From NCBI GenBank assembly GCA_963732855.1, contig CAVTBB010000005.1:139821-203820 (forward strand): a stretch of DNA of 64,000 bases. The letters run 5' to 3'. This document shows, in pieces, positions 33,809 to 63,489 of this stretch. This DNA comes from an uncultured Methanomassiliicoccales archaeon (GTDB lineage Archaea > Thermoplasmatota > Thermoplasmata > Methanomassiliicoccales > UBA472). Made by a program: the position numbers and the translations under genes. A model generated the notes under the pieces. It saw nothing but the letters and a program-made list of their open reading frames with translations. It had not been told where the DNA came from and made no database searches. Each line of letters begins with the position of its first letter. Within the stretch, counting starts at the first letter, position 1.

Positions 33809-34204
33809 ATGGACCTAGTACAACTGATAATTGCGATAGTGGTTCTGATCATAGGCTGGGTGATCATCTCGATACCTTTGTGGCTCGCTGCAAAGGTGTG
33901 GACAGGCGGACAGGCAACTATGGGAGAGGCCATGCTCGGCATGCTTCTCGGCGGGATTGTCTTCGCCCTTGTCTATGCGGGTACATTCCTGCTCACGAAC
34001 ATCATCACCAGTTCGGGCATTGCTTTGATCGTCGCGGCGATCGTCGCCTTCCTGGCCTTCCTCGGCCTCTATAAGATGTTGTTCGATGTGGGTTGGCTCA
34101 AGGCATTGGGGATCGCCATCCTGGCAGTGATCTTCGCCGTGGTCATACTGCTAATAATGTCGGTGGTCTTGGTCGCAGTGGGAATAGGTGTGCTGGGACT
34201 GTGA
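33809..34204 (+). CDS. small polytopic membrane protein
   Basis: It is highly hydrophobic. The C-terminal part (LYKMLFDVGWLKALGIAILAVIFAVV) is paralogous to the 34425 gene. Confidence 0.55.
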   Translation: MDLVQLIIAIVVLIIGWVIISIPLWLAAKVWTGGQATMGEAMLGMLLGGIVFALVYAGTFLLTNIITSSGIALIVAAIVAFLAFLGLYKMLFDVGWLKALGIAILAVIFAVVILLIMSVVLVAVGIGVLGL

Positions 34205-34424
34205 TCGGTTCAGATAGGTAACGAAAAACGATCGGCCAGGAGGACTTATTCCAACATGGGTCTATCTTTTTGACCCTAGCCATTCTTCCTGACCTCACCT
34301 TATTTTTTAGACAATTTCGAATCCCTGAGAGCCTCCCTGAAAACGGTAAAAAGGCCGGGTTCCATATTAAATCCCGCTATTCCATTGAGTTCATGGCTTA
34401 TATCCAACGTTCAAACATCGATGT

Positions 34425-34754
34425 ATGGTCGATACTTCGAGCATCGTTTATCTGTTGGTCGCACTAATAATTTCAACGATCATCATCTATTTTGTAACCA
34501 AGATCATGGGAGAGAGGGAAGGTCTAGGCACGGCCTTGGTCGCAGCCGTGATAGGCACTGTGGTCTACATCGTAGCCTATTTCTTGCTTGGCAATGGCCT
34601 ATTGGCAGCCGTTCTGGCAGGAATAGTCTGGCTGCTGGCCCTCAAAGGACTATACAAGATTGGATGGATCAAAGCGCTCATCATCGCAGTGCTGATCTGG
34701 ATATTTGCTACGATAATCGGTTTCTTCCTTCCGACGCTTTCAGGTCCGTTATAG
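34425..34754 (+). CDS. small polytopic membrane protein (paralog of 33809..34204)
   Basis: It shares the LKGLYKIGWIKALIIAVLIWIFATIIG block with the upstream gene. Confidence 0.55.
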   Translation: MVDTSSIVYLLVALIISTIIIYFVTKIMGEREGLGTALVAAVIGTVVYIVAYFLLGNGLLAAVLAGIVWLLALKGLYKIGWIKALIIAVLIWIFATIIGFFLPTLSGPL

Positions 34755-34981
34755 AAATGAAAGCTGAGACTGAAACCCTTTCCATTTTAAAAATATTCAA
34801 TTTATTATCCAATTAATCATTGTTCCTTTTACTCGATCTCATCTAAATGACCTGTCATTCCAGCTTACGGGCGATTCCTCTTATACGGAGTACATGGGCC
34901 TCAAGCCATTCAGGGGGCTGCCTGGGTCCATCGGCGGAAAATGACCTATGAACCAATTAAAAGGGGAATAGGGGAGGAAGA

Positions 34982-35131
34982 ATGATCGACATCTCGACCA
35001 TCATCGATGCTATGAAGACCGGGCCAATCTTCGCTTTCCTCGGGCTGTCCATCCTTGTCCCGATACTCATCCTCGGGAAGGTGATATCGTCTCTGCCTGG
35101 TGAAATCATCTTCGGGGCGGGCCTGGGATAA
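34982..35131 (+). CDS. candidate 49-aa hydrophobic micro-protein (below ORF-track cutoff)
   Basis: The ATG lies just downstream of AGGGGAGGAAG. The product is MIDISTIIDAMKTGPIFAFLGLSILVPILILGKVISSLPGEIIFGAGLG, with one TM helix. It is antisense only to a featureless track ORF. Confidence 0.35.
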   Translation: MIDISTIIDAMKTGPIFAFLGLSILVPILILGKVISSLPGEIIFGAGLG

Positions 35132-48214: not shown

Positions 48215-48287
48215 GTGGGCGTAGTGTAGCTGGTTATCACTCGTGCTTGCCAAGCACGAGACTCGGGTTCGAATCCCGACGCCCGCA
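48215..48287 (+). tRNA. tRNA-Gly (GCC)
   Basis: The sequence is GUGGGCG-UA-...-CGUGC UUGCCAA GCACG-AGAC-UCGGG UUCGAAU CCCGA-CGCCCGC-A. The acceptor (one G-U), anticodon and T arms pair, and the anticodon is GCC. CCA is not encoded. Confidence 0.85.
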
Positions 48288-48413
48288 CTTCTTGTCATAT
48301 CCATTACCCAAGGATGTTTCTATGATTGGCCTACGATACGATATGAAGCAACATCGTTGCCGGCGATCTTATCTTGCCGCAATCCTGGTTTGTTAGGAAA
48401 TAGCCGGGTCTAT

Positions 48414-48656
48414 TCAATCCATGTAGAACACCTCGGTCACGTTCTTACCCGATTCGGTTATCTCCGGATGCTTCCTGTGACCTTCCTTCCCGTTGACCCA
48501 TCCCTGCTTGATCCACCCGTCGATGAAGTGCCTGGAATAGTACATCTTAGCCGCCTGGAGCCCCTCCCTCTTAAGATTCTCCGGCTGATGTTCCCATACG
48601 CCGGCTTCGGTCAGCGCCTTGATCATCTCACCGTACTTCGTGCTCTTCTTGCTCAC
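48414..48656 (-). CDS. small protein, possible winged-helix module
   Basis: It is 80 aa. The segment MYYSRHFIDGWIKQGWVNGKEGHRKHPEITESGKNV resembles a wHTH wing (L/ITExGK). It lies 20 nt downstream of the CARF-like gene. Confidence 0.4.
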   Translation of the reverse strand: MSKKSTKYGEMIKALTEAGVWEHQPENLKREGLQAAKMYYSRHFIDGWIKQGWVNGKEGHRKHPEITESGKNVTEVFYMD

Positions 48657-48676
48657 TATCCTTTCACGCAGGATCC

Positions 48677-49282
48677 TCAGCCCCAGACCAGGTCCCGGGG
48701 CGGCATTTCGATCGGGAACACCGGGAGCGGGACCGGGTCACGGACCTCTTTAGCGTTTCCAACTGGTTTGTCGTTCTCAAAGTAAGCTTTGCGTATCCCT
48801 TCCTCGTTAGGGATAGTGTACTTTTTCACATGGACGGTGAACGGTTTCACACCCTCGACCATCATCGCCGCCACGGTCGCCGCCGCGGCAAATTCAGACG
48901 TGCCAGCCGATATGTTGACGTAGACATCATTTCCTTCCACCCGTTCCTTGGTCATGATGGAGACCAGCTTTTCGAGGAGAATGCTGAACCGGTAGACCTC
49001 GATATTGACCTCTTCGACCTGGTCAATGCCCTTATCTTTCAATGACCTGACGACCTCATCATAGAACTCCGCATAGACGGTCCCGGGGTTCCCAAAATGA
49101 AGGATGTAGATCTTTTCCGCCTTGATGTAATCGATCGGTTGCGTCACCTTCACAGTCTCGAACGTGACGCAGCAGATCATCACCCGGCGTTGGGCCTTCA
49201 TCGGCATTAGGGCGTTGGACCGTTCCTTATCCGCCTTGTTTACCTTCCCGTCCTTCGAGTTTACCTCTGCGACCGACTGCAT
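48677..49282 (-). CDS. CARF-like / DUF6293-like Rossmann sensor domain protein (no fused HTH)
   Basis: The beta-alpha pattern RRVMICCVTFE...IYILHFG...DVYVNISAGTSEFAAAATVAAMM resembles the CARF/Csa3-like N-domain of HFX_2341-type regulators. This is a recollection-level match only. Confidence 0.45.
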   Translation of the reverse strand: MQSVAEVNSKDGKVNKADKERSNALMPMKAQRRVMICCVTFETVKVTQPIDYIKAEKIYILHFGNPGTVYAEFYDEVVRSLKDKGIDQVEEVNIEVYRFSILLEKLVSIMTKERVEGNDVYVNISAGTSEFAAAATVAAMMVEGVKPFTVHVKKYTIPNEEGIRKAYFENDKPVGNAKEVRDPVPLPVFPIEMPPRDLVWG

Positions 49283-49309
49283 CCTATCATCTCGATAACA
49301 ATTATAACG

Positions 49310-49327
49310 ATTATAACGTTATATAAA
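49310..49327 (-). promoter_or_regulatory. TATA box (TTTATATA, minus) abutting palindrome TATAACGTTATA and a tandem ATTATAACG repeat
   Basis: The minus strand reads TTTATATAACGTTATAATCGTTATAAT, ~40 nt upstream of the ATG at 49282. The 13-mer attataacgttat recurs at 62308..62320. Confidence 0.4.
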
Positions 49328-49388
49328 TTATCTTCCTGAGACCGATTCTGAGGCTGCCAACGCCCTCTGGGATTAGAGGCTAAGCAGC

Positions 49389-50189
49389 TCAAACCCTCAG
49401 CTGTCTCACCACTCCGACATACGTCTCCTTGTCTATGCCTAGGTGGTGGGCGGCTTTTTCCGCCACTTCATCATTGATGGCGTTCAGCGCTCTTCGACAA
49501 TACTCTGGATATTCCATTCGGACCGCGGAGAGTATCTCCCGGAAATTGATTTTTGAATGCCAAATTATGGCGTAAATGTCGCAGGCGTCCTTCCAGAGCT
49601 TGTCCTCCTTCGTCCGATCAGGCATAGCCTTAAGTTTGGTGGCAAGCAGGATGTGAGGCGGGGGAATGATCACCCTGGCGCTATTGATCGTTTCTGGAAT
49701 ACCACATTTCTCTTCGAACACTCGTGAAATGAATGGTTCGTCCATCGGGTCGGCCCTGAAGTATTGTCTGTGCTTTGGATGTACGTTGTCCACCATCATG
49801 TCGACATACAGATAGATCATGTCATACAGGTTCATACTGCTGGCCGCCCTCTCGTCAATCGTTTCTCCGGTGTCCCTTCTGATGATCCTACAATAACGGA
49901 AAGATCCATGGGGCTTATAGCCGACCCTGTCGAGGACCGCAAGAGCCTTTGCGTAAGTGCAATTTTGCAGGGCTTCATCATCGCAATCGGCGTCAACGTG
50001 AAATCCAAGGTCGATATCCTTTGAACCGAGATAGGGAACGCCTTGTTCTTTCCGATAAGATTCGTTCACGGTGAGGTATACTGCCCATCCTCCGATCAGA
50101 AGGAATGGTTCCGGCAATTCTTTAGATAGAGCTTCCAGCGCCTCCAAGGCGGTGTCCGTCTCTTGCCGGTCGTAGAGCTGAACCGTCAT
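49389..50189 (-). CDS. nucleotidyltransferase, AbiEii/DUF1814-like (type IV TA toxin family)
   Basis: It has the NTase core LLIGGWAVYL...GSKDIDLGF and the downstream KDACDIYAI motif typical of AbiEii. It overlaps the upstream wHTH gene by 4 nt. Confidence 0.6.
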   Translation of the reverse strand: MTVQLYDRQETDTALEALEALSKELPEPFLLIGGWAVYLTVNESYRKEQGVPYLGSKDIDLGFHVDADCDDEALQNCTYAKALAVLDRVGYKPHGSFRYCRIIRRDTGETIDERAASSMNLYDMIYLYVDMMVDNVHPKHRQYFRADPMDEPFISRVFEEKCGIPETINSARVIIPPPHILLATKLKAMPDRTKEDKLWKDACDIYAIIWHSKINFREILSAVRMEYPEYCRRALNAINDEVAEKAAHHLGIDKETYVGVVRQLRV

Positions 50190-50800
50190 AGATACACCTT
50201 CCTTACCAGGTTATCGGCGGCCTCGGCGCACTCCGAACCCGTCCGGTAAAGGTCCACTATCAGTTGCTGTATGGATACTACTGGCCATCCCTGCACCTCA
50301 TACTTCTCGAAGAAGACCTGCTCATCTGAAATGATGACCCTGAGATTCCCCTTCCCGACGTATCCGTTCGCGATCAGACAGGAGTGCCATTTCATGGCAT
50401 CCTTCCTTTTGATATAGATTTCGTGGTATCGAGGAAATAGATAGTGACCGACCAGGTTCTCCGCGAAGTACCCAGTAAATGCATAGTCCATTACTGAGTT
50501 CTTCAGGACCGATTCAGGGTCCTGGAGGTGGTATTCCCTGAAGACCCGGTTGTCCTTCCTTCCCGCCCATTCCATGAAGATCCCTTTCGGATCTTTCAAT
50601 TTGCCGTCCGCAATAAGCGATTCCTTCTTCAATTGAGTCAAAATTCGATGTGCCCAGCTATAGCTTACATCGGCCTCTTTCGCTATCCGGTACCATGTCA
50701 GGTTGGAAATCTTGCGGCTGAGGAGGATGCGGTATATCCGTTCGACCTTGTCCCCGCTAGCATTATGGGGATCTAAGGACGTGATTCTCACATATATCAC
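50186..50800 (-). CDS. AbiEi-like wHTH antitoxin/transcriptional regulator
   Basis: It has an N-terminal wHTH (NLTWYRIAKEADVSYSWAHRILTQLKKESLI) plus a C-terminal domain ending in VVSIQQLIVDLYRTG, as in AbiEi-type proteins. It is the first gene of the pair. Confidence 0.5.
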   Translation of the reverse strand: MIYVRITSLDPHNASGDKVERIYRILLSRKISNLTWYRIAKEADVSYSWAHRILTQLKKESLIADGKLKDPKGIFMEWAGRKDNRVFREYHLQDPESVLKNSVMDYAFTGYFAENLVGHYLFPRYHEIYIKRKDAMKWHSCLIANGYVGKGNLRVIISDEQVFFEKYEVQGWPVVSIQQLIVDLYRTGSECAEAADNLVRKVYL

Positions 50801-50820
50801 AAAACATTACAACTATATAA

Positions 50821-50872
50821 AATAGACCGTTATATCTGCTTTATGTTATATTATATATAATAGACCGATATA
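50821..50872. promoter_or_regulatory. pair of 14-nt direct repeats AATAGACCG[T/A]TATA in the abiEi / 50918 divergent promoter region
   Basis: The copies are at 50821..50834 and 50859..50872, with one mismatch. They flank a TATA-rich stretch. Confidence 0.4.
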
Positions 50873-50917
50873 GCATACTTATCCAGTTGAAGTATTGGCA
50901 AACGATGAAAGTCAAAT

Positions 50918-52205
50918 ATGGCCAACTCCTGGAAATGGAACAAACAACAGCGAGTAGAAATTCAGAAATATGCTGAAAATGAATCATCTTCGATCTATAT
51001 GAGATCCGTCCAGGACAATTCCGGCAGCAACATCGACGATGCGGTCGAGCTTCGCATCCAGGTGAAGGACAGGAAGCCACCGGTATGGAGACGGGTCATC
51101 GTCCACCCCGACACCGACCTCAAAGAATTGCATCGCCTGATCTCCGTCCTCCTGGGATGGAAAGAGGGACGCAGTCATCATTTCGAATTCCGAGGCAGCA
51201 CGCTTCATCCGGAAGGGATCGAGAACGAGACCCGTCGGATCTCTAAGTTCGCCGTGGGAGCCGTCCTGGTCCATTTCATTGACGAAAAAGAAGGGCCGGA
51301 GTGCAGCGTCATGGTCGTCAGGAAGGACCGCGAACGGACGGACCGATTGCCATTCCTCATCGACGGAATGAGGATGATGGACGGCACGGAAAAGGATCCT
51401 TACGATATTCTCATCGAAGAGATCGAGGCGAAGCTGAAGTCATTTCGCAGGCACGATGACAAAGTTCCCGACAAGAACGGCACTTTGGTCGAGCCTTGGC
51501 GGGACAGGGCGCTGACCCGGACGGATGATCTACCGGAGGATTTCGCAAAGATCCAACCTGTCATTGAAAAGTTCATGGCCGGGAAGGGATCGGTCAAACC
51601 CTTGGAACCGGCGTCGGTCAAGGTCCCTCCGGACACGCCGGTCGACATCAGGATCGCTCTCAGGGACATGTCGCTCAAGGTATGGCGGCTCGTGCGCGTC
51701 CGTTCCCAGATAACATTCCACGATTCTGCACCGGATCATCCAGGCATCCTTCGGTTGGGAGGACGCGCACCTGTATGAGTTTGTAGCTGCCGATTCTCAT
51801 ATCCAGTCGTTCGTCGAGGACGAGGTCGGCGATTTTCCCATGGGAATCGATATCATCGACGCCAAGGGCATCAGGCTGAGGGATATCATGACCGGGAAGG
51901 GTTGGTCCATTCCGTACATCTACGATTTTGGGGACGGATGGACGCATACAGTCAAGGTGGTCAAGGTCCATTTGGGAGAGCCTCCGTTGGATCGGCTCGA
52001 ACTGCTGGATGGTGCGGGCGCATGCCCTCCGGAGGACTGCGGCGGTTCCTACGGATATCAGGAACTGATCAACATTCTGAACGATTCGAAGAATCCAGAA
52101 CACAATTCAATGGCAGAGTGGTACGGCGGTAACGAACTGGATCCGGCGAAATTTGACATAGATGCCGCCAGGATCAGGGTCGGATCGCTGAAACGGATGT
52201 CGTAA
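50918..52205 (+). pseudogene. pRiA4b ORF-3-like (two-domain) protein, single +1 frameshift near 51723
   Basis: The C-terminal hallmark is YIYDFGDGWTHTVKVVKV...GAGACPPEDCGGSYGYQEL. The N-terminal part of that domain (VWRLVRVRSQITFHD | LHRIIQASFGWEDAHLYEF) is split between two frames by one extra nucleotide. A degenerate first copy lies at residues ~45-130. Confidence 0.7.
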
Positions 52206-52250
52206 TATAGCTAATAACAACGTGAAGTTAACCGATGATCTGGAGAGAGG

Positions 52251-52880
52251 TCACCGTATCCTGATCGTCAGCTTGCTCTCGAGCTTGCCCTGGCTGCTCC
52301 TGCTGGCCGAATCTAGCAAACGTTCGGCGAACTCACGATACTGGCAGTCCACCGCTTCCATGACGATATCGTCCGAATCCCGGAACGATAGAACAGGTCT
52401 TTACGGATAATGTCGAGCACATCGCCGACATCCGTCGGACCGACCAGCTTGGTCAGAATTACCTCGAACATCAGGGAACCGAAGTGGCCGTCGAACATCG
52501 TCGCCACGCGGTGGCGAACATTTTCTTCTCGTTATTTCTCAACATCCTCACGCGGTCGATGAACAACTGCGAGCAGCGTTCTGCCAGTTGATTGAATCCA
52601 TCGAGATCGTACGAGTAACCCTTGTCTGCCTGTATGCATTCCGAGAACATGTCCAGCGCGCTTTCGGCCTGTACCTTCCCCGGCAGATAGGGGGACATCT
52701 CCTCCAATTATCGCAGAATTTCGCCAATTGGCGTACTGTCTGTTGCGGGTCCCCATCGTCCTTGTGGTCCTCGATGCAATCACTGAAATGCGCCATGAAC
52801 CCGAGGTACCAGTCCGTTAAGTCACCCGGATCTTTCTTCTGCTTCCCGTTCATGTCCGAATACTTTGAATGTCTTTCCAT
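52251..52880 (-). pseudogene. unknown gene broken into at least 4 frame segments
   Basis: Consecutive minus-strand ORF pieces (MERHSKYSDMNGK...AKFCDNW / EEMSPYLPGKVQAESALDMFSECIQ... / ATMFDGHFGSLMFEVILTKLVGPTDVGDVLDIIRKDL / DDIVMEAVDCQYREFAERLLDSA...) read on from one another only after frame changes. Confidence 0.5.
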
Positions 52881-53047
52881 GTCATATTCCGTTCGGTTGT
52901 CCGTCCTTCGACATTCAGACCTTATTGAATAGCGTCTCCCACCAGATGGCCCATGTGCGATCATGGTCCCATCGATCCGGGGACGGTTGGTCCTTAGCCT
53001 TTGAAAATTCATAAACTTTGATAATCTGGGTCCCCATTCCGTTATCC

Positions 53048-54517
53048 ATGCCCCAATTCCCGACCGAGGATCCGATATCCGATCAGGTGCTCTCCGAACT
53101 CTCCCTGTTCCTGGAGTTCGACAATATCGCCTCGCGTTACATCAACACACAGAATCTGGCCTATCAGAAGATCCCGTCCGATAAGATTGCCGTCTATGCC
53201 GCGGAGATGTTCGAAAGAAAGACCATGCTAGAGGCGCTGAGCATGGGGACATCCTGGTTCCTGGAGATGCTGGACCTGAGCAGGGGAAGGGAATGGTACA
53301 TCGCCGACCGGGAACGGCTCTCAAGGCACGCGGTCCTGCTCGCCCTCTTCCCCGATTCCTTCGACTCACAGAACGTCCGCGCCCACGGGCCATTGACGAG
53401 GCCGCTCTTGGCGGAAAGGAAAGCGATCTCGGAGGACTATCCCCACCTTTACCACCCCCGGAGCTGGGGCGAGGTCCCAGCTGAGGGTAAGAATCTGCCC
53501 GACCTGCAGGGGGACTTGGACTGGATGGACCACGACCAGTCCGGCCTGGACGATGACGAGTACGACGTCCAGAAGGACGAGATGGTGCAGCTGGAGCTGC
53601 TCTTCGAGAAAGTGTGGGGGGCCTACCCTGTCTATCTGGAGGAATCGATCTCGATACAGGAAGTGATCGATAGGGCTTTCGAAGATATCAGCACCGAAGG
53701 CGTCAGCCTGCCGGACGACATCGCCGAACTGTTCGCCGCCCGCCATCCGGGGAGCATGTCGGTTCTGCATCGCTTCGTGATCGAATCACTGATCTTCCGC
53801 TTCATGCTGGAGGAGGGCATGGAGAAGACTATGGAAAGGGGAGAGAAATGGATCGCCGTAGACAAGACCGGGGACAGCCCCCTCCGGCCTATCTCCCGGG
53901 CGGACGCGGACCGGTCCCTGGCCCTGATGGATAAGCTGCTCGGCGATATGCAAGAGGTCAATGACCGCATGATGGACTCGGCCCAGGCGATGGCCGACCT
54001 GAGCGACCACGACTCTTCGTGGAACCTGACCGAGGCTGTGCTGGAACGGACGGAAGGGACCGAACTCTGGCCAGCCATCGCCCTCCAGGGGGTCATGAAC
54101 CTGAGAATCGTCAGAGAAAGCGATGGGCGAGCAACTGTCCCGCAGGATCTGGAGAAGGGGGAGAAAGAGAAGGACAGGTCGCTCACCGCGGCCGGACTGA
54201 TCGCCATGACGCTGTCGCTGCACTCGCTCGGCCGGGCGAAGGAATCCGATGAATACAAGAAACGCATGATGGACACGATGCTGTCCGGGATAAGCGAGCC
54301 CCGGATCCTGTTCCTCTACCCGGCCGCCGCCTGGGGGTGCCTGGAGATCGGCGCCAAGCAGGAGGCAAGGAAGCTTGCATCGGTCGGGCTGAAGTACATA
54401 CCTGAGGACATGGAAACGGAGCTGGGGAACGAACTGCTGCAGGTCAGACGGCAGGCGGACAGGGTGGAAAGGAAGAGGAAGGACGCAGTGGTCCCAGCGT
54501 CCAAGCGGCACAGGTGA
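53048..54517 (+). CDS. hypothetical acidic helical protein
   Basis: This is a 489-aa ORF of normal composition, rich in D/E. I recognised no family. Confidence 0.5.
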   Translation: MPQFPTEDPISDQVLSELSLFLEFDNIASRYINTQNLAYQKIPSDKIAVYAAEMFERKTMLEALSMGTSWFLEMLDLSRGREWYIADRERLSRHAVLLALFPDSFDSQNVRAHGPLTRPLLAERKAISEDYPHLYHPRSWGEVPAEGKNLPDLQGDLDWMDHDQSGLDDDEYDVQKDEMVQLELLFEKVWGAYPVYLEESISIQEVIDRAFEDISTEGVSLPDDIAELFAARHPGSMSVLHRFVIESLIFRFMLEEGMEKTMERGEKWIAVDKTGDSPLRPISRADADRSLALMDKLLGDMQEVNDRMMDSAQAMADLSDHDSSWNLTEAVLERTEGTELWPAIALQGVMNLRIVRESDGRATVPQDLEKGEKEKDRSLTAAGLIAMTLSLHSLGRAKESDEYKKRMMDTMLSGISEPRILFLYPAAAWGCLEIGAKQEARKLASVGLKYIPEDMETELGNELLQVRRQADRVERKRKDAVVPASKRHR

Positions 54518-54602
54518 CAACCCAGTCGATATTGATCTGCAATGATCGATGAAGGACCGGCTTATCCTCCTGATCAAGAATAGCGTCTATTGGCAGAGTG
54601 GT

Positions 54603-54642
54603 CCGTTAGATAATGTTAGATACTGGCCATATTATCTAACGG
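54603..54642. terminator. perfect 12-bp inverted repeat (CCGTTAGATAAT-16 nt-ATTATCTAACGG) between convergent genes
   Basis: I read this directly from the sequence. It lies between the 53048 gene (+) and addA-like (-). It could be a bidirectional terminator hairpin or a protein-binding site. Confidence 0.35.
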
Positions 54643-54742
54643 ATATCTACCGATCATCTTCTTCATCTCGTATCTGCGCCTCGATCATCCACTCTGGAAT
54701 TCTGATGCCCGGCGAGAAGAAGACCGAGAAAGCAAGGCACCT

Positions 54743-57700
54743 TTAGCGTTCTACTGCCTTATCGACCTGCTCCGAGCATTCCCTGATCCTATCCTTCAAT
54801 CCGGTGTCGAAACCCATCTCATCGCCGATATGGACATATCTTCCCGACCCGGTGAAATATACCTGACCTTGCACCTTTACGTGCAACGCCCTCGACATCA
54901 TAAGCGCGTACGCCCTCAGCTGGTCTGCATGCCTCTCGGCGTCCTTCTCCTCGCTGCCCTGTTTCACCGCATCGGTCTTGAAATCCACCACGATGGAAGA
55001 GCCCGAACGGTTCGATTCTAACCGGTCCACCTTCCCCTGGAAACGCTGTCCATCGATATCGGCCATGAATACCAGTTCCCGATAGGCAATGCCATCGGAT
55101 CCTTTCAAAGCAACGAAGCGTTCTTTGATCTTGGCAAGTTCTGCAACGCTTGAAGCGGGCAGCCAATACTTCCTGGCCACCGGCTCCGGGTCACGGCCTT
55201 GCAAGATTTCGTGCGCCGCAGTGCCGAACTGCATGGCGTCCGATCGGGTACCGCTGTCCAGCCATCCTTCCGGCACCCCGAAAACGTTCCTCCGGACGAA
55301 GCGCTCGGGATACGACTCGAACGCCTCCAAGCCGGTGACGGTCAGACCGATCCTCCGTTTGGGCTTTGAGACCGAGGACCATCCCCCCAGGCCGCCGATA
55401 TCTTCCGGCAGGGACATGAGGGAAGGTTTCTCCCGTTCCGTTTCTTCCAGATCCATGTCGCTCTCACGGACGACGTAAACGAGGACATGATCGTTGATGG
55501 CGATCATGTTGACATCTGGGCGGATCCCTTCCGGCGCGATGGCCGACCGCAGCAGATCCATCCAGTTGACCGTTGTGCGCTTGTCCGATCCGATCTTCCC
55601 GCTAAGCACCAGATGGTCCCTGGCCCGAGTCATGGCGACGTAGAGCAAGCGTTTCGATTCCTCGGCATCCTTCTCATCCTCCTCGATCTCGATGAGCGAG
55701 AGCGCCGCGTTCTTGGCCAGTTTGTAATCCTCTCCCAAGACGGTCAATCCCAGCCCAATCCCTTCGTCGAACAGTATCGAGCTCGTCGAACTTCTCGGCG
55801 GCGCGCCCAGCTCCGGAACGATGACAATGGGGAACTCCAGCCCCTTCGACGCATGCACCGTCATGATGTTGACCGCGTTGATGGACGACGTCTCCATGGG
55901 TGCTTCGCCCTCGAGCTTCGCCAGCTCCATGGCGTTCTCCATCCACTCCACCGCTTCATGGGGCATGCAGATGCCGTCGGCGGATGCGTTGCGCAGCATC
56001 GATGTCAGCTTGTCCAGATTGGCCAGCAGCTGGGCCGAGTTCGTCTGGGCGGAGTAAACGGCAGATATCCCGGACGTAACCTGGACGTACTGCAGCAGTT
56101 CTGCGATGGGCATCCTGCCCGCGCGTGACCGCCATGATTCAAGCATGACCACCGCCATCTTGGACCTCTCATCCTCTTCGGCCCTCTTCTTCAGCCTGCT
56201 CCAAAGGTCAAACCCCTTGCCGCGGCAGATGAAGAACAGCTCCTCGTCCGAGAACGAGAAATAGGGAGAGCGCAGCATCCCGTAGCTCGAAACGTCGTCC
56301 GAACCGTCCGCCAGGAACCTAAGGATGTTGTACACGTCCAAGACCTCCTGCCGTTCGAAGAAGCCCAGGCCCTTGTGCACCTGATACGGGATGTTGCGGT
56401 CACGCAGGGCCTTCTCAAACATCTTCAGGTGGGTGCGTGCGCGCAGAAGGATGGTGAGGTCACCGTACACGGGAGTGCGGCCTTCCTTGAGCCGTTTCCC
56501 TTCGTTGTCGGTGTAGACCAACTTCCGGCCTTCGGTCATGATTGCCTGGATCCGGGTAGCCACCATCTCCGGTTCGGAGAGTGTATCAACTGGAACCTGT
56601 CCGGCTACCGCGGTCCCGGGTGAACCAGGCAGCATGAGCTCGACGCTTCCGACGTCGGACGATTTCTCGGCCGAGCGGCACATCGGTTCGTACTTGAACC
56701 GGAACTCGCGGTCCTCTTCGACCATCAGCCGGGAGAACACGTGGTTCACCACGTCCACGACCTGCCGGGTCGAACGGAAGTTGACGTCCAGGTGCACTCC
56801 CGCTTCCGAGTCCATATCAACCATCTTGCGCTTAGCACCCTGGAACATGGCCACGTCCGCGTTCCTGAAGCCATAGATGGACTGCTTCGGGTCACCGACA
56901 ATGAAAAGGCGGTCCTTTGGGTCGTCACCGGCGACAGCCCAGACGATCTTCGACTGGATCGGGTCGGTGTCCTGGAACTCGTCCACCAGCAGGTTGCGGT
57001 ACCGTCCGCGCAGCGAACTGACGACCTCGTTCCTTCCGACCAGCTTCATTGCCGTCGCGATCATGTCGCCGAAGTCGATGGCATTGGCCTTCTTCTTGGC
57101 CGCCTCCATGGCGGCGGCGTAGGAACCGTAGACCCGGATCAGGTCATAGGTCGATTCGGTGGTCCTTTGGACCATCTCATCGTTCCCGCAGGCCATCTTG
57201 TCCAGGCAGGCGGCGTCCAGAGCGGTTCTGATGGAGTCGTAGCTGGATGCGAGCCGCTCCTTTGCCCCGTCCTTGAAGAACTTCTTGTTACCCATGGACC
57301 GAGTGCCTTTTACCTTCGAAAGCAATCGCAATTGTTCCAGTTTCTCTCCATCGGTATTCGCCACCAGCAGTCGTCTGATCATCGGACCGGCCTCCGACAG
57401 GTACCTCTGCCCCGGGTCATCCTGACCCGAATGGGAATCGGCGAGATCGGATAGTGTGACCAGCGACTCGCGGACCCCCTCTTTCGATAGGACCCTGTTC
57501 ACCATTTCGCTCAGGATCATTCCGTCCATCTCTTCGGCCCATTCCCGGACCGACTCCATGGTGCGGTGCTTCTCGAGCCACTCCGCCATTTCCGCGCGGC
57601 GCTCGTACATGTACTCCAGACGCTCCTTGGTCTTCAGGCTGCCAAACCAGGTCAGGGCGCGGACCAGGCTCTCGTTCGTCTCTCCGCCGCATTCTCCGCA

Positions 57701-58099
57701 TAGAAGCGAGTCGAACGCCTCCTCCTGCATCAAGCTTAGGCCGACGTCGTCCAGCACCTGGAACCTTGGGGCGACACCGGAGACCAGTGGATACTGCCGG
57801 ATCAGGTTCGAACAGAACGAGTGGAACGTCGAGATGGAGCACCAGTTGAACTCGTCCAGGCGCTCCTTCCACACCTCGCCCTCATTCTCAGAGATGGCTT
57901 TTCTTACCCGCTCCTTCATCTCCGCCGCCGCTTTCTCGGTGAACGTCAACGCCAGGATCTGAGACACCTTGACGCCGTTCTCCAGCAGTTTCAGATAGCG
58001 TTCGACAAGCACCCAGGTCTTCCCTGCCCCGGCCCCGGCGGTCACGCACAGGCTGCGGTCCAGGTCCAATGCGCGTTTCTGGCTCTCGGTCGGTTCCAT
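54743..58099 (-). CDS. addA: AddA/RecB-type UvrD-family helicase with C-terminal PD-(D/E)xK nuclease
   Basis: All SF1 motifs are present: AGAGAGKTWVL, LLVDEFQDTDPIQ, VGDPKQSIYGFRNAD, NFRS, VHASKGLEFPIVIV, LLYVAMTRARDHLVLSG. The C-terminal nuclease motifs are GTAAHE, GKVDRL...IVVDFKTD and QLRAYAL. The ATG follows the addB stop after 1 nt. Confidence 0.85.
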   Translation of the reverse strand: MEPTESQKRALDLDRSLCVTAGAGAGKTWVLVERYLKLLENGVKVSQILALTFTEKAAAEMKERVRKAISENEGEVWKERLDEFNWCSISTFHSFCSNLIRQYPLVSGVAPRFQVLDDVGLSLMQEEAFDSLLCGECGGETNESLVRALTWFGSLKTKERLEYMYERRAEMAEWLEKHRTMESVREWAEEMDGMILSEMVNRVLSKEGVRESLVTLSDLADSHSGQDDPGQRYLSEAGPMIRRLLVANTDGEKLEQLRLLSKVKGTRSMGNKKFFKDGAKERLASSYDSIRTALDAACLDKMACGNDEMVQRTTESTYDLIRVYGSYAAAMEAAKKKANAIDFGDMIATAMKLVGRNEVVSSLRGRYRNLLVDEFQDTDPIQSKIVWAVAGDDPKDRLFIVGDPKQSIYGFRNADVAMFQGAKRKMVDMDSEAGVHLDVNFRSTRQVVDVVNHVFSRLMVEEDREFRFKYEPMCRSAEKSSDVGSVELMLPGSPGTAVAGQVPVDTLSEPEMVATRIQAIMTEGRKLVYTDNEGKRLKEGRTPVYGDLTILLRARTHLKMFEKALRDRNIPYQVHKGLGFFERQEVLDVYNILRFLADGSDDVSSYGMLRSPYFSFSDEELFFICRGKGFDLWSRLKKRAEEDERSKMAVVMLESWRSRAGRMPIAELLQYVQVTSGISAVYSAQTNSAQLLANLDKLTSMLRNASADGICMPHEAVEWMENAMELAKLEGEAPMETSSINAVNIMTVHASKGLEFPIVIVPELGAPPRSSTSSILFDEGIGLGLTVLGEDYKLAKNAALSLIEIEEDEKDAEESKRLLYVAMTRARDHLVLSGKIGSDKRTTVNWMDLLRSAIAPEGIRPDVNMIAINDHVLVYVVRESDMDLEETEREKPSLMSLPEDIGGLGGWSSVSKPKRRIGLTVTGLEAFESYPERFVRRNVFGVPEGWLDSGTRSDAMQFGTAAHEILQGRDPEPVARKYWLPASSVAELAKIKERFVALKGSDGIAYRELVFMADIDGQRFQGKVDRLESNRSGSSIVVDFKTDAVKQGSEEKDAERHADQLRAYALMMSRALHVKVQGQVYFTGSGRYVHIGDEMGFDTGLKDRIRECSEQVDKAVER

Positions 58100-58100
58100 C

Positions 58101-61100
58101 TTACTCGCCCTCCATGTCCATGACGCGCAGCGCATCGAACCGGCACACCTGCTTGAACTCGCAGTATGCCTTGCAGTCCTTCTCCGACTCGGCCGGATGG
58201 AAGGCACCATTGCGCATGTTAGAAAGCATCCCGGCGACCATCAGGTTAGTCCCAGCCACCAGGTCCCCGATCGGTTCGCTGAGGAAATGCTTGCGGGTGC
58301 CGACGATCTTCTTCAGAGGTGCGGCGTTCTCCTCGTCGACCACGATGGTGGAGTACTCGACCTCTGCCTCGTTCTTGACCAGATAGAATATGCCGCCGAC
58401 CCCGCGGGAATCCTTGATCATCTTTTCGACGGCCTGCAAGTAGAGCTGTACCTGCAGGCTCCTCCCGGTCTCGACGTCTGAAAGCTTGGGCAGCATGCCG
58501 GTCTTGTAATCGATCACGAGGAACTTCCCGTCCTGATCGATGTCCACCCGGTCGACCCTGCCGGCCAGGAGTAGCTTCGAGTCGTCGCCGAGGTCAAGCT
58601 CGACCGGTTTGTCTACTGAGGAAGGGTCACAGCTGTCCGGCTTCGCCCTGCCGAACGACAGTTCGAACAGGCTAGGCGTGTAGGGCGAAGGATTTGCTAT
58701 CTCGTATTCCAGGAAAGCCCTGAGCAACCCTTTGCGATAGGGGGACCCGGCCATCCTGGCCTGGAACGCGTCCCACGCCGGGCCGCTGAACTTCATCGTC
58801 GCCAGCTCCGCCGCCGCTATCGCCTTGGCAAGTTTCTCGATCGAGTCCAGATTCTCGGCGTTCATGGGCGTGCCGCTTGATCTGAGCTGGGAATACAACC
58901 TGAACGCCACCTCGTGCACGAAGGTGCCCTGGTCCTTGCCCGTTATCTCCAGCTCCAGCTCGGGGCGCGGCTCGATCCTTAGAACGCTGGTGAGGAAGAA
59001 CCGGAACGGACAAGAAGAATAGGTCTCTATCTGCGTCGGGGAGAACACCTTTGCGGGGGAGAGCATCTTGCCCAGCTCTTCGATGATCTTCTCGTCGTTG
59101 AGCACGCCGTCGAAAGGCGAGTCGTAGTCGTTCACCCTGTGGAAGGCCTCGACGTTGATCCGGCGGAGCAGCTCTTCGGGCGTGATCTGTATCGCTAGGG
59201 AAATACCATCCATCGAACGCTTCCGGGCGATCGCCTCTCCCAGAGCCTTCTGTTCGTTGATCCGCGACGCATGGACATCCTCCTCGGCGAACGACGGCGG
59301 ATCGAGCGCCTTGACAACCTCGTCATAGAACGAGGAAGAGACCACCTTGCTGCCGTCGTTGGAACGGTAGCAGCTCAGGCTGACGGTCTTCCTGGCGGTC
59401 TCCAGAGCGGAAAGGAAGTACAATCGCTCCTGACGCAGGATGTCCGACCGGCTGAGCAGACCCATCCTTCCGATGTCCGCTTCGTCTATGAACGGATTCC
59501 CGACGCCGAGGAACGGCAGGTCCCCCTCGATCATCCCGACGATGAAAACATGATCGTACCGGGTCAGCATGGCCGCCCTCAGACCGGTGACCTGCACGGC
59601 ATCGTCGTACATCGGTTCGACGTAATGCTTGGAATTGGAGCAAAGCACCTTGACCCGGGCGATGAAAGAGCCCAGGCCTTCCTTGCCGACCGGGTTGAAC
59701 GACTCGGACGAGATCATCGTGTCCAGCACGCCGAAGAACGCCGCTAGGCTGCGCGCTTCCTTGTTGTAAATGCGTTCGTCCTCGTGCGCCAGATGCCGGT
59801 CCGCCTCCAGCCGCTTCAGCACCTGCTTGAGGCGGGAGATCCTTTCGTCCACCGTAATCGTTCCCTTTATCGTTCCGAGCAGGACGAAAAGTTCCGTGAG
59901 ACCGTCGTTGACAGTCGCGACCCGCATTGCCTTGTCGGAGATCTGCCTCGCCCGTTCCGGCGGGACCTCTGGTGACGACGCTTCTTCCTCCAGGCTCTTC
60001 CGGAGCAGGTCCATCTTCTCCTTCCACTGGGCGACGCCGCCGATGACCCCGGCCTGCTCCCCGTAACTGGAGACCATGCCCCCGGACAGTCGTTCCTTGC
60101 TCTCATTGCCGTACCTAAACCGGATGTATGGCGAAGACAGCAAACGGACCACTCTCTCCCTGGGCATGTCCTCGTTGACCGCTTCCAGAAGGTCGAGCAT
60201 CACGTGGACGATGGGCGATTGGTTCAGCGGGATGGGCACGTCCAGATTGCACCAGATTCCAGACTCGTCAAGCATCTCCCGGAATAACGGGGCCGATTTC
60301 TCCCTCATCGGCAACATGACGCAGATCTCCGAAGGGCTCGTTCCTGACGAGATGAGCCTTCTGATCTCGCCGGCAACGGCCCTAGCCTCTGCCAGCGGAT
60401 CAGCGAACACCCGCGCCTTGAGCTCCGCACCATTCCGGAATCGGGCCAGTTCCTCAGCCTTCGGACAATCTTTGACCGCTTTCTCGTCAGCCCCTAGCCA
60501 TGACAGGTCCTCTCTGAACGTTTTCCCACCGTCGTTTCTGATTACGAAAACGGTTTCAATGGCCGCGGTCCTGACCGCATTGACAAGTTCCTTCTCCAGC
60601 GGGCTCAGTTCATTCAGTCCGATCATCCAGACCTTCTTGACCGATACACGGTTCTCTTTCAGCCATCTAATGGCACACTCCATTACACCAACGCTATCGT
60701 AAAGCTTCGATCCAGAAGTGCGTTCCAGGTACTTCTCGAATATAGAAAGGATTTGATCGTTAACAGTGTCCTTGCCCGGGCTGGCGATCACGGATGGTGA
60801 CACCTTGAACTGGCGCCAGGTGTCGAACAGCGCCCTCAGTTCAGAAACGGTCGGACCAATGCCCGCCCAAAGTGGCTCGAACTCTTTAAGGGATGAGCGG
60901 TTCTCGTCCATCACCGACTTTAGTACGAGCTCGGCCTCCTCGACTCCGATGGACGTCTCGCTGACGCAGCAATCCTCGAAAATGTTCTTTGCCAGTTCGT
61001 CAAGGGTGCAGATCGGGTCGCCGAGAAGGACGATACCACGTTTTAGCATCCGGTCGACTGATTGGCGGCGGGCGGTGCTCGACGGCAGGACCATCATGCC

Positions 61101-61196
61101 GCCGAAAGGGTCCAGCGACAGCGTTTGATGGAGTTGCTCCTCGACATCGTCCATGATCCCCTGCGGCTCGCACCGGATTAACGTTAATTTCCCCAT
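58101..61196 (-). CDS. addB: AddB/RexB-type subunit: degenerate helicase-like N-region + C-terminal Fe-S PD-(D/E)xK nuclease
   Basis: The C-terminus has SCPFRFF...FVHEV...GRVDRVDIDQDGKFLVIDYKTG...LQVQLYLQA...CKAYCEFKQVC, i.e. the 1+3 Cys cluster seen in AddB/Cas4 nucleases. There is no Walker A at the N-terminus. I trimmed the start to MGKLTLIRC. Confidence 0.8.
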   Translation of the reverse strand: MGKLTLIRCEPQGIMDDVEEQLHQTLSLDPFGGMMVLPSSTARRQSVDRMLKRGIVLLGDPICTLDELAKNIFEDCCVSETSIGVEEAELVLKSVMDENRSSLKEFEPLWAGIGPTVSELRALFDTWRQFKVSPSVIASPGKDTVNDQILSIFEKYLERTSGSKLYDSVGVMECAIRWLKENRVSVKKVWMIGLNELSPLEKELVNAVRTAAIETVFVIRNDGGKTFREDLSWLGADEKAVKDCPKAEELARFRNGAELKARVFADPLAEARAVAGEIRRLISSGTSPSEICVMLPMREKSAPLFREMLDESGIWCNLDVPIPLNQSPIVHVMLDLLEAVNEDMPRERVVRLLSSPYIRFRYGNESKERLSGGMVSSYGEQAGVIGGVAQWKEKMDLLRKSLEEEASSPEVPPERARQISDKAMRVATVNDGLTELFVLLGTIKGTITVDERISRLKQVLKRLEADRHLAHEDERIYNKEARSLAAFFGVLDTMISSESFNPVGKEGLGSFIARVKVLCSNSKHYVEPMYDDAVQVTGLRAAMLTRYDHVFIVGMIEGDLPFLGVGNPFIDEADIGRMGLLSRSDILRQERLYFLSALETARKTVSLSCYRSNDGSKVVSSSFYDEVVKALDPPSFAEEDVHASRINEQKALGEAIARKRSMDGISLAIQITPEELLRRINVEAFHRVNDYDSPFDGVLNDEKIIEELGKMLSPAKVFSPTQIETYSSCPFRFFLTSVLRIEPRPELELEITGKDQGTFVHEVAFRLYSQLRSSGTPMNAENLDSIEKLAKAIAAAELATMKFSGPAWDAFQARMAGSPYRKGLLRAFLEYEIANPSPYTPSLFELSFGRAKPDSCDPSSVDKPVELDLGDDSKLLLAGRVDRVDIDQDGKFLVIDYKTGMLPKLSDVETGRSLQVQLYLQAVEKMIKDSRGVGGIFYLVKNEAEVEYSTIVVDEENAAPLKKIVGTRKHFLSEPIGDLVAGTNLMVAGMLSNMRNGAFHPAESEKDCKAYCEFKQVCRFDALRVMDMEGE

Positions 61197-61556
61197 TTCT
61201 GATTCCTGTCCTGCAAAGATGATCGACCGGCGACCACCGGCCCTGTAATGATGTAAACTGATCCCCCGGTCAATGGTCGGGCTATTACATTCAGCTTTTC
61301 CTACCAGCATCGATTACGAGACGTGTTCCAATATTCCATGTCTGGAATTGGACCTGATATCCCCGATCCAAGTTCTTGTCAGCTGTCTGATACTGGTATC
61401 ATGAAAGCTGAACTGAGACAGGGGGAAATTCAGGGAGTTGCGTACGATGACCGGGCACTTCCCCACGGACGTTAAGCCAGCGCCCCGCCCCACTCATCGA
61501 CTTACTCTGTCCTGTTCCCCGCCTCGGTTCTGACGTCCGATATTCCCTGGATGTTC

Positions 61557-62033: not shown

Positions 62034-62363
62034 TCATGCCTCGACCAATGTCAAGGCCAACGATCCACATTCATACCGGTTTGATCCGTTCAGTTCCGAG
62101 ACCTTTTTGCGCTTCTTCCGGGTGAGGAAGTCGGGCTTGAGATCGTCCTCTCTTAGTCGGCGAATTCCGTTGTCCCAGGCATACTCGTATAGTATCTGGC
62201 TGGACCAGGCGGTTATGTCACCGTTCGAAAGCAGGTACATCGTCCTGCGGTCTATGTTCGGGGTGTTCTGCTGCATATTGCCTAAACAGCAGAACGAGAA
62301 TATAGACATTATAACGTTATTAGTGTTATAACTGTTAGTTATTGGTTCAATAAGAGAATTCAA
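62034..62363 (-). CDS. hypothetical small protein (true start probably internal, ATG 62276)
   Basis: The first ~30 codons fall in AT-rich, promoter-like DNA that contains the ATAACGTTAT palindrome. The remainder is MQQNTPNIDRRTMYLLSNGDITAWSSQILYEYAWDNG...KKRKK. Confidence 0.4.
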   Translation of the reverse strand: MNSLIEPITNSYNTNNVIMSIFSFCCLGNMQQNTPNIDRRTMYLLSNGDITAWSSQILYEYAWDNGIRRLREDDLKPDFLTRKKRKKVSELNGSNRYECGSLALTLVEA

Positions 62364-62707
62364 TCTGTCAGATTAAAGATGAACCTAACTTTGGACCAGA
62401 TTATAATCAGAACAGCAACAGGCAACAACCAGTTAGCCAGAACCTTGGCTGAATAAGAAGGATCTTGGTATTCGCTTTTATGGGAAAGATAATAACTCAA
62501 AGGATTTTGATATACCTTGAAAGCGCCATTTCTATCTCTCCGTGCTTCCTTCAATTCCAAGTGTGACTCGCATTGTGTGCAACCAACACCCCAAATGCTC
62601 GATGATGAAAAAATTTGGCGCAACGCGGAAGAAGCGATCGCGAAACTAGCGAGGGAAGATTGTCCAATGTTAGCTGCGTGCAAAAGTGAATCGATCTTCT
62701 GGATCAC
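62360..62707 (-). CDS. hypothetical protein with C-terminal TM segment
   Basis: This is a 115-aa ORF with an AT-rich codon composition. The C-terminus (LANWLLPVAVLIIIWS) is hydrophobic. Confidence 0.35.
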   Translation of the reverse strand: MIQKIDSLLHAANIGQSSLASFAIASSALRQIFSSSSIWGVGCTQCESHLELKEARRDRNGAFKVYQNPLSYYLSHKSEYQDPSYSAKVLANWLLPVAVLIIIWSKVRFIFNLTD

Positions 62708-63029
62708 CGTCCAAGCTTCTCGAAGATGAGACCAAAGAAGTCAGAGAAACGGCGAAATAGGCCATTGACCAGAAATCGAAATCTGAGGGGTGACAAAAAT
62801 GGTCTCCTAGAAGAAAGAAAAAGGTGACTCGAAGCTAGGCAATCGATATCAATCGAGACAACCCAGATTTACAGGATTAAGACCGATATTAGGATTTGTT
62901 CCTTCATTCTCTCGATAAGTCAACAATATGGCTTTATGCCATATTTGTGAACGAACCGTTAAGGAATAAACCATGCTCTGCGAAATTCGGCATCGATAAA
63001 ATGTGAAATGGACAATTGATCAAGAGAGG

Positions 63030-63371
63030 TTATTTGGATCCTTCATATCGGTTAAGTTTCAGGTCAAAGTTGCTCGTGCTTCCATCCTTGAATTCCGTCG
63101 TCAGTACCATTCTTTCCGCATCGATGACGAGCGACATACATTCCATATTCGACGAATAGGTCCTATTCCGTTTATTCGTCCCATTCGCCTTCAGCAACCC
63201 GATCTTCTCCAGGTCTTTGATCCGCCGATAGCATTTTACCTGTGGTATCTCAAGCGCTTCAAACAGCTCCTTGACTCCTCTTGGACCAACATCGGTTAGA
63301 GCAAGTATTTTCGAGGCGTCGATGTCGAACGCTAATTCCGCCAAATCGAACGCCGCGACATTTGATTCCAT
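63030..63371 (-). CDS. ArsR/wHTH-type transcriptional regulator
   Basis: The segment ASKILALTDVGPRGVKELFEALEIPQVKCYRRIKDLEKIGLL is a winged helix. Its architecture (wHTH plus a beta-rich tail) is similar to the 24230 gene. Confidence 0.6.
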   Translation of the reverse strand: MESNVAAFDLAELAFDIDASKILALTDVGPRGVKELFEALEIPQVKCYRRIKDLEKIGLLKANGTNKRNRTYSSNMECMSLVIDAERMVLTTEFKDGSTSNFDLKLNRYEGSK

Positions 63372-63489
63372 TAAAGATTAGACCACCTCGAAGGTATTTA
63401 GCGATTCATCCAGGATTCTGGCTATTGATAGTGAGATTATAATTCTCGCTTTTCATGGGTTGAAAAGATTTGATTCCAATGAAATGATT

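Follow-up and report, generated by a model that had tools for sequence, protein, structure and literature searches.

A probable mosaic accessory hotspot near tRNA-Gly(GCC) on a Methanomassiliicoccales chromosome

Genes and features at the locus

Methanomassiliicoccales are methanogens of gut and wetland, and few of them are in culture. We analyzed a stretch of 64,000 nucleotides from an uncultured member of this order (hereafter the window), in which a tRNA-Gly(GCC) gene is followed by a set of accessory genes. A first-pass annotation had read these genes, at 48.3-54.6 kb, as an accessory island that starts at the tRNA and ends at a perfect 12-bp inverted repeat, and that would be a remnant if it was once a mobile element. 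All features listed there are present: the tRNA-Gly(GCC), a CARF-like gene, a winged helix-turn-helix (wHTH) open reading frame (ORF), an AbiE-like pair, a frameshifted pRiA4b ORF-3 gene, a gene broken three times, an acidic protein of 489 aa and the 12-bp repeat. The content 3' of the tRNA is indeed accessory and variable, and several of its genes are decayed, but the idea of one remnant bounded by tRNA and repeat did not hold. The region is probably a mosaic accessory hotspot on the Methanomassiliicoccales chromosome, not one degraded tRNA-integrated element. Its features are the following:

48215..48288 (+), tRNA-Gly(GCC), found by ARAGORN and by Rfam RF00005 (63.6 bits); left synteny breakpoint
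48289..48413 (no strand), 125-nt junction from the tRNA to the stop codon of CARF-wHTH; without a match to either flank in relatives
48414..49282 (-), gene of a CARF3/DUF6293 (HFX_2341-like) CARF and winged-helix regulator, in ORFs of 201 aa and 80 aa, split by a 1-nt deletion near 48680
49294..49349 (no strand), CARF-wHTH promoter region with palindrome TATAACGTTATA (core 49313-49322); conserved, left edge of the cargo slot
49389..50189 (-), intact gene of a 266-aa nucleotidyltransferase of the AbiEii/AbiGii family (PF08843), the putative toxin
50186..50800 (-), intact gene of the putative AbiEi-like antitoxin, 204 aa, probably with an HTH at its N-terminus; shares 4 nt with the toxin gene
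50801..50917 (no strand), divergent, AT-rich intergenic region; AATAGACCGWTATA occurs twice as a direct repeat, at 50821-50834 and 50859-50872, with a spacing of 38 nt
50918..52205 (+), pRiA4b ORF-3-like gene with two tandem PF07929 domains, pseudogene with a +1 nt insertion near 51724
52206..53012 (-), pseudogene of a lineage-specific, all-helical family of 201-212 aa, with three frame changes (three-frame reading)
53048..54517 (+), acidic helical protein of 489 aa, intact; third member of the module
54603..54652 (no strand), non-coding element of 50 nt; each strand has two GTTAGATA-type boxes, four in all, arranged about a central TGGCCAT; right edge of the variable slot (slot B)
54743..61310 (-), operon of an AddA-like protein (UvrD helicase and PD-(D/E)XK, 1155 aa) and an AddB-like protein (PD-(D/E)XK, 1069 aa), assigned by Pfam; backbone right of the slot
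62034..62337 (-), small gene (~80 aa) heading the AddB/AddA string, with the upstream palindrome TATAACGTTAT (62311-62320)

Upstream of the tRNA lie an 886-aa ORF of valyl-tRNA-synthetase (ValRS) type and a small membrane protein. In exact-protein look-ups, neither this membrane protein nor the AbiEii-like protein described below was on record. The first gene beyond the tRNA had been annotated as two, a CARF-like gene (48677-49282, -) and a small wHTH ORF (48414-48656, -). Both assignments were supported, the former by a match to PF19810 (HFX_2341_N, 2.8e-18) and the latter by a weak match to DUF6293_C. They are, however, parts of one gene. Four orthologues are 870 nt long and in frame; the window copy has 869 nt, one base being absent in GGTC-TGGGG. 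The frame-joined protein of 289 aa reached 66-67 bits with PF19810 (cutoff 30) and 33.1 bits with PF22665 (cutoff 27), the latter match spanning the junction, and matched the PADLOC CARF3 model PDLC01878 end to end (E=6.5e-76). In the window, the CARF domain and the DUF6293_C winged helix are not in one polypeptide, since their frames differ by the 1-nt deletion. Judged from its sequence, the CARF-wHTH gene as it stands is a pseudogene or a split gene, which raises the number of decayed genes in the region from two to three.

Homologues of CARF-wHTH form at least 108 clusters in Methanomassiliicoccales, most of them of 264-314 aa. The gene is intact (287-289 aa) in four loci that are compared below (L081, L083, L084 and L085). 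The L081 copy has one extra nucleotide in a run of five G (G5) close to the 3' end (~4560-4631); this alters the last ~25 codons and is probably a homopolymer sequencing error of that metagenome contig. In Ca. Methanoplasma termitum (CP010070.1, L087, 4359-10837), a CARF3/DUF6293 homologue of 35% identity divergently adjoins a type V-A locus (Cas12a-Cas4-Cas1-Cas2). By this arrangement, a CARF-wHTH regulator is linked with a CRISPR type for which cyclic oligoadenylate synthesis is not known.

The two AbiE-like genes are both intact. The downstream gene had been proposed to be AbiEii-like, and its product matches PF08843 by a narrow margin (23.3 bits, cutoff 22.5; E=7.1e-5). It also matches the PADLOC AbiEii model (3.4e-5), contains the motif GSKDIDLG and, over ~90% of its length, shares 29-31% identity with genes on haloarchaeal plasmids that are annotated as AbiEii/AbiGii (E=9e-31). 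For the upstream gene, read before as an AbiEi-like partner, the architecture and the conserved pairing hold, but the 204-aa protein belongs to no AbiEi Pfam family at E<=0.1 and has no PADLOC match. Its matches to HTH/TrmB families are weak (~0.02). It is 34% identical, near full length (E=3e-37), to a 204-aa gene upstream of a Halobaculum AbiEii gene, and the AbiE-like pair is matched as a unit by a haloarchaeal plasmid pair. Architecture and conserved neighbour support the 204-aa protein as the putative cognate small DNA-binding partner. The AT-rich region 50801..50917 is a putative promoter or operator.

The three genes on the right were considered as a module. The pRiA4b ORF-3-like gene had been noted to contain one frameshift, and this is a +1 insertion relative to the L002 orthologue, which is open through the site. 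Its two fragments score 62 and 110 bits with the Pfam family, and the frame-corrected protein of 428 aa scores 225 bits in two stretches. An intact homologue of 311 aa is present in contig P0004. The second gene had been described as broken in at least three places, in agreement with the three frame changes found here; intact homologues have 201-212 aa. Six homologues are 44-73% identical, and five near-full-length ones (44-65%) cover ~95% of the reconstruction. An AlphaFold model of the family member P0120 is all helical, with a predicted local distance difference test (pLDDT) value of 86, and a Foldseek search of this model against the PDB returned only designed helical repeats and 14-3-3 proteins (E>=0.045). 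The 489-aa protein, formerly called an acidic orphan, is acidic (isoelectric point 4.79; 90 D+E, 59 K+R) but not an orphan, with nine homologues at 37-76% identity. It has no Pfam or PADLOC match, and its model (pLDDT 51.5) was too poor for a structure search. Neither of the two structure models pointed to a function. The order pRiA4, 212-aa, 489-aa recurs in the P0004 contig, where a DUF7309 gene precedes it, and in L002 and L082 the module is inverted and lies at the equivalent of window ~37.55 kb. By these comparisons, the trio is a lineage-specific module located at another chromosomal site in other relatives.

The tRNA-Gly(GCC) site and the variable slot

Comparison genomes of Methanomassiliicoccales were obtained with the ValRS protein as query. 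Four close relatives (L001-L004) have ValRS proteins 93-96% identical to that of the window and DNA 84-89% identical. Loci containing the DNA on the far side of the tRNA (L081, L083, L084 and L085) were obtained with the AddA-like helicase and the CARF gene as queries. L004 and L084 are two loci of one complete chromosome, OW818644.1.

DNA homology with L001-L004 covers the ValRS gene, the membrane protein gene and the tRNA, and ends at 48289-48306 in all four. Directly 3' of the orthologous tRNA-Gly, L001, L002 and L004 carry an intact tyrosine integrase (Phage_integrase, 407-413 aa), accompanied in L004 by a resolvase. The more distant L011 and L015 likewise have an intact integrase of this family and size range right beside the tRNA, and L016 has a broken copy 3.4 kb from it. 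Because the same integrase family adjoins the tRNA in multiple relatives, the 3' end of tRNA-Gly(GCC) is, on this comparative evidence, a recurrent integration hotspot of attB type across the order. In L003 (16357-18031), a pair of ABC-transporter genes 81-84% identical to window 32014-33713 is found ~3 kb downstream of tRNA-Gly, by rearrangement or as a second copy.

The window itself lacks the marks of such an integration. As had been stated before, no integrase is present: no region ORF has a Pfam recombinase match, and tblastn with the integrases of L001 and L004 and the resolvase of L004 as queries gave no match anywhere in the window at E<=1. Neither is there a repeat of the tRNA 3' end. 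Exact matches of at least 10 nt to the tRNA plus 12 nt were chance 10-11-mers (221, 34594) or the anticodon stem, and blastn-short found no att repeat beyond chance in 11 related loci. Of the properties of a tRNA-integrated island, the position 3' of the tRNA is seen (the tRNA ends at 48288, the first accessory-type gene at 48414); integrase, att repeat and presence or absence as a unit, the three defining ones, are all lacking. A second tRNA called by ARAGORN, tRNA-Gly(TCC) at 56613-56707 (+), 95 nt, lies inside the AddA-like ORF, has no Rfam tRNA match at E<=1 and is almost certainly a false positive.

OW818644.1, the closest complete genome, was informative on the break at the tRNA. Its CARF-wHTH orthologue (84% aa identity, 22737-23606) and its tRNA (~52860-52933) have their 3' ends facing, as in the window. 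They are 29.25 kb apart, with the integrase first; in the window this distance, here called interval A, is 125 nt. Since integrase-bearing DNA lies between tRNA and CARF-wHTH in OW818644.1, homology breaks off at the tRNA because the relatives have gained DNA or because the window has lost it; the break is not the left end of an element in the window. Interval A of the window would thus be an unoccupied site, or one cleared by deletion.

On the other side of interval A the DNA is conserved. The order in the compared loci is ValRS, membrane protein, tRNA-Gly(GCC), interval A, CARF3-wHTH, slot B, 50-nt element, an optional Schlafen/AlbA_2 gene and the AddA/AddB-like operon. The AddA-like gene, the 50-nt element and CARF-wHTH are collinear and in the same orientation as in the window in L081, L083, L084 and L085, and the AddA/AddB-like operon is collinear in the same loci at 76-81% nucleotide identity. 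The left and right ends of the 48.3-54.6 kb segment, CARF-wHTH and the repeat, are therefore parts of a conserved backbone together with the AddAB-like operon, and the segment is not a single element.

The variable DNA lies between these ends. By homology with L084, which extends to 49349, slot B of the window comprises ~49350-54600. It holds the AbiE pair and the pRiA4, 212-aa and 489-aa genes in the window, is empty in L081 (~90 nt), contains only the 489-aa gene, fragmented, in L083, a trio of SMC, Metallophos and PD-(D/E)XK genes in L084, and IS110 (an insertion sequence, IS) and a DDE transposase in L085. The same flanks thus enclose five different contents in five genomes, which is what defines an accessory hotspot. 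The cargo thus far includes an AbiE-like pair here, SMC/Metallophos/PD-(D/E)XK genes in L084 and IS110 plus a DDE transposase in L085, with a Schlafen/AlbA_2 gene adjoining. Presence or absence of the 48.3-54.6 kb segment in relatives had been suggested as a check on the island; the segment does not behave as a unit, and AbiE pair, trio and 489-aa gene each vary on their own. The comparisons indicate that the variable block itself is composite, an AbiE cassette plus a three-gene module found elsewhere in other genomes. Its cargo likely arrived by recombination or transposition between the conserved flanks and not by tRNA-directed integration. The intact AbiE-like toxin-antitoxin (TA) cassette would persist through addiction or abortive-infection selection.

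Some further details of the slot and its surroundings were recorded. The OW818644.1 cluster (L084 4311-9745) encodes an SMC_N/AAA_15 protein of 967 aa, a Metallophos protein of 403 aa and a PD-(D/E)XK protein of 395 aa. On the other side of its CARF-wHTH gene (L084 11001-15705) are a 541-aa protein, a NucS_C-like protein and a Schlafen group-3 helicase. Both sets are defence-like content and carry no assignment to a named system. The Schlafen/AlbA_2 protein, which also has HATPase_c_4 (443-445 aa), is encoded between AddA and the multi-box element in L081 (2285-3616), L084 (2582-3913) and L085 (6080-7417). A remnant of this gene remains in L083 (3838-4094); it is absent in the window, where ~90 nt separate AddA and the element.

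Conserved DNA motifs and proposed regulation

The perfect 12-bp inverted repeat CCGTTAGATAAT (54603-54614 / 54631-54642) had been taken as the end of the island. The repeat is present, but it is part of the larger 50-nt element. In this element, GTTAGATA-type boxes occur on each strand at 10-nt spacing. Three exact copies of GTTAGATA are found in the 64-kb window, all inside the element, against 0.71 expected. The element is 82-94% identical in L081, L083, L084 and L085; the neighbouring genes are 74-85% identical. In relatives, only 8-11 of the 12 positions of the arms can pair, without compensatory changes, and the element has no Rfam match. The loss of pairing without compensation, together with the missing Rfam match, ruled out that the repeat is an RNA or a terminator hairpin. 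In L083 the 489-aa gene adjoins the element. That the element belongs to the trio was also ruled out, for L082 has the 489-aa gene of the trio without it. The element behaves like a predicted protein-binding site of the backbone, not like a hairpin or an element terminus.

A second motif, the palindrome TATAACGTTATA, precedes the CARF gene, ~30-40 nt ahead of its start, both in the window and in L084, L088 and L089. The CARF promoters that share it belong to orthologues with 52-85% protein identity. There are two copies in the 64-kb window, at 49313-49322 and, upstream of the small gene that heads the AddB/AddA string, at 62311-62320. Copies in relatives lie at 9962-9973 and 10921-10931 in L084, 10927-10937 in L085, 9962-9973 in L088 and 9015-9026 in L089; in L084 and L085 the palindrome is also seen ~50 nt downstream of the CARF stop, before the next gene. 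The small gene has homologues in L088 and L089 (52% identity), beside and divergent from CARF-wHTH, and one in L083. In L088 and L089, CARF-wHTH is divergent from a small gene that heads an SNF2/AddB/AddA string. The palindrome may serve the CARF3-wHTH regulator as an operator, or represent a local promoter consensus.

These positions, and the analogy with Csa3-type CARF-wHTH factors, suggest a model for the relatives in which CARF-wHTH is intact. The regulator would bind TATAACGTTATA at two promoters, its own and that of the small-gene/AddB/AddA string, and might bind the multi-box element as well. A nucleotide signal would thereby be coupled to the expression of CARF-wHTH and of this string, so that autoregulation and co-regulation of the AddAB-like operon by CARF-wHTH are putative functions. 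For the 50-nt element, a site of recombination or insertion by an unrecognised mechanism, or a distal operator for CARF3-wHTH control of the AddAB-like operon and the cargo, may be envisaged. Likewise, the trio may be a module that relocates itself within or between Methanomassiliicoccales chromosomes without a known recombinase. We regard these last proposals as speculative and quite unlikely.

Beside the small gene, at 62338-63480, the window contains an AT-rich block (GC 0.42) with a 115-aa ORF (62360-62707, -) and a TrmB-like HTH ORF (63030-63371, -). The block starts at the TATAACGTTAT palindrome and is flanked by the small gene that precedes AddB and by a gene of the tubulin/FtsZ family. 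Homology with L083 ends at 62338, and no more than ~260 nt are present there in L083, so the block looks like another small window-specific insertion.

Competing explanations and relation to known systems

Several observations weigh against the mosaic-hotspot reading and the regulation attached to it. The comparison loci cover +/-10 kb per relative, and ~9.9 kb of OW818644.1 between its two loci lie outside this coverage. A tRNA-Gly directly adjoining CARF-wHTH was found in no relative, so that an empty site and a deleted element are indistinguishable here, and the 125-nt junction had no match at E<=1 (blastn-short) in all 90 loci. About 18 nt 3' of the tRNA resemble the integrase-side sequence of L002 and L004 and could be an attL scar. 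The AT-richer left part of the region fits foreign DNA, and no mechanism for the exchange of slot B cargo is evident from the compared loci. As to the motifs, the palindrome overlaps a TATA-like sequence and may be a mere promoter consensus, and DNA binding to either motif is a prediction.

Intrachromosomal rearrangement of resident, lineage-specific genes, with breakpoints at the tRNA, ~37.5 kb and ~54.55 kb and nothing foreign involved, is an unlikely explanation, although part of the data is in line with it. The inverted pRiA4/212/489 module in L002 and L082, at the equivalent of ~37.55 kb, would be a product of such an event, as would the homologues of window genes 32026-33713 that L003 carries ~3 kb downstream of tRNA-Gly. 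Homologues of the module genes are confined to this lineage, and their GC content (0.52-0.60) is host-like. The AbiE-like cassette, however, has a GC content of 0.50 and no homologue in any related locus, and its sole relatives detected, in a plasmid collection, are on haloarchaeal plasmids (~30% identity). IS elements and unrelated systems in slot B of other genomes indicate that new DNA was gained, and moving the module with inversion would require at least two inversions or a transposition.

We consider it very unlikely that a single mobile element once entered tRNA-Gly and, after loss of its integrase and distal att site, left 48.3-54.6 kb as its remnant, with the inverted repeat as its far end. 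The place beside the tRNA is a proven integration hotspot in relatives, homology with the four close relatives breaks at the tRNA, and several genes are decayed. The AbiE-like cassette would also suit a mobile element, as would a gene of a kind often found on plasmids (895 plasmid records match the pRiA4 domain). Composition, which had been named as support, agrees in part: the left 2.7 kb are AT-richer, with a GC content of 0.494 where the window has 0.549 (~6% of stretches of that size are as low), but the whole region has a GC content of 0.534 (27% as low). The deviation of the region is modest, and other parts of the window are much lower (0.38-0.44). The model is largely refuted by the fact that CARF-wHTH and the repeat element are kept beside AddAB in five related loci without a nearby tRNA. 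Furthermore, the integrase element of OW818644.1 sits between tRNA and CARF-wHTH, L002 and L082 have the cargo trio elsewhere on the chromosome, and neither an integrase remnant nor an att repeat was found. The region had no DNA match in plasmid and phage collections (blastn), and scans of viral contigs yielded no relatives of the 489-aa protein, of AbiEii or of the L004 integrase.

Low-GC stretches elsewhere in the window are at 2000-3500, 7000-10500, 24000-25000 and 34000-35000, with a minimum of 0.38 at 2-3 kb, and 2301-3201 is a gap of 899 nt without ORFs.

The decayed genes contain five indels within ~3 kb of gene sequence (CARF-wHTH 0.87 kb, pRiA4 1.29 kb, 212-aa 0.81 kb). These frameshifts were established against in-frame orthologues, and the remaining window is tiled by long ORFs. 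In the assembled sequence, the clustering of the indels and the intact ORFs elsewhere argue for probably real decay rather than random assembly error. That the decay is an artefact of indel errors in a metagenome-assembled genome (MAG), with all region genes functional, is hardly credible: the window does come from a MAG contig (686,689 bp), related MAGs are long-read assemblies and the L081 CARF-wHTH has its probable homopolymer (G5) indel, but five indels in ~3 kb contrast with other window ORFs, including those of 886, 1069 and 1155 aa, that read through intact, the CARF and pRiA4 indels are outside long homopolymers, and the fragmented 489-aa gene of L083 is consistent with real decay in the slot. 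Inactivation of two of the three module genes and of CARF-wHTH by single-nucleotide indels would be the expected fate of non-essential cargo.

In the mosaic-hotspot reading, the region belongs to known kinds and its novelty is low; specialists in genomic islands or defence hotspots would find nothing surprising here. The result is a corrective one. A break of homology at a tRNA need not mark the adjacent DNA as the insert; in this case it is the relatives that carry insertions. In Methanomassiliicoccales, the comparison maps a tRNA-Gly(GCC) hotspot used by one integrase family across the order, and a second, integrase-independent variable slot beside a CARF-wHTH regulator and an AddAB-like operon. 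It also maps a small lineage-specific gene module, and adds two DNA motifs as candidates for the CARF3-family regulator.

Among known systems, the AbiE-like pair resembles the type IV TA and abortive-infection system AbiE, which consists of a wHTH antitoxin (AbiEi) and a GTP-specific nucleotidyltransferase (AbiEii). Common to both are an overlapping bicistronic pair with a downstream nucleotidyltransferase containing GSxDxD, a small upstream protein with a probable N-terminal HTH, and paired repeats in the promoter region. In contrast to AbiE, the upstream protein is outside the AbiEi Pfam families, the toxin score is marginal and the promoter repeats are direct, not inverted. The C-terminal domain of the pRiA4b ORF-3-like protein fits the full profile of the plasmid pRiA4b ORF-3 family (PF07929; 225 bits when corrected) and is ~40% identical to Agrobacterium plasmid genes. 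Unlike these, the window copy is a chromosomal, archaeal pseudogene with tandem domains, within a trio with two lineage-specific genes.

CARF-wHTH factors of Csa3 type regulate cas and DNA-repair genes (PMC5587795, PMC7515695, PMC8844856). The regulator described here shares with them an N-terminal CARF-like Rossmann domain and a C-terminal winged helix (PMC5587795, PMC7515695, PMC8699464, PMC8844856), neighbours of defence or repair (the Cas12a locus in Ca. Methanoplasma termitum, the AddAB-like operon here) and a palindromic motif in its own promoter. Its family is a different one, however: CARF3/DUF6293 reached 20.9 bits with the Csa3 model TIGR01884 (cutoff 60.2), and the window copy is frameshifted.

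The relatives' tRNA-Gly(GCC) loci, with an integrase gene (int) directly 3' and differing content beyond the tRNA in each, are like tRNA-linked islands with tyrosine integrases, such as archaeal pNOB8-type islands with an intact int next to attL. The window differs in that integrase and att repeat are absent, the conserved backbone gene is reached after 125 nt and the cargo is not adjacent to the tRNA.

Hotspots of defence islands and accessory genes between conserved core genes have been described for bacterial pan-genomes. The present region differs from them in its host, an archaeal order, in the partly pseudogenised cargo of the window and in having no evident insertion mechanism. It resembles them in its conserved flanks, the CARF-wHTH promoter on one side and the multi-box element with AddAB on the other, which enclose differing cargo in five genomes; among this cargo are a TA or abortive-infection cassette, SMC/Metallophos/PD-(D/E)XK genes, Schlafen-type genes and IS elements.

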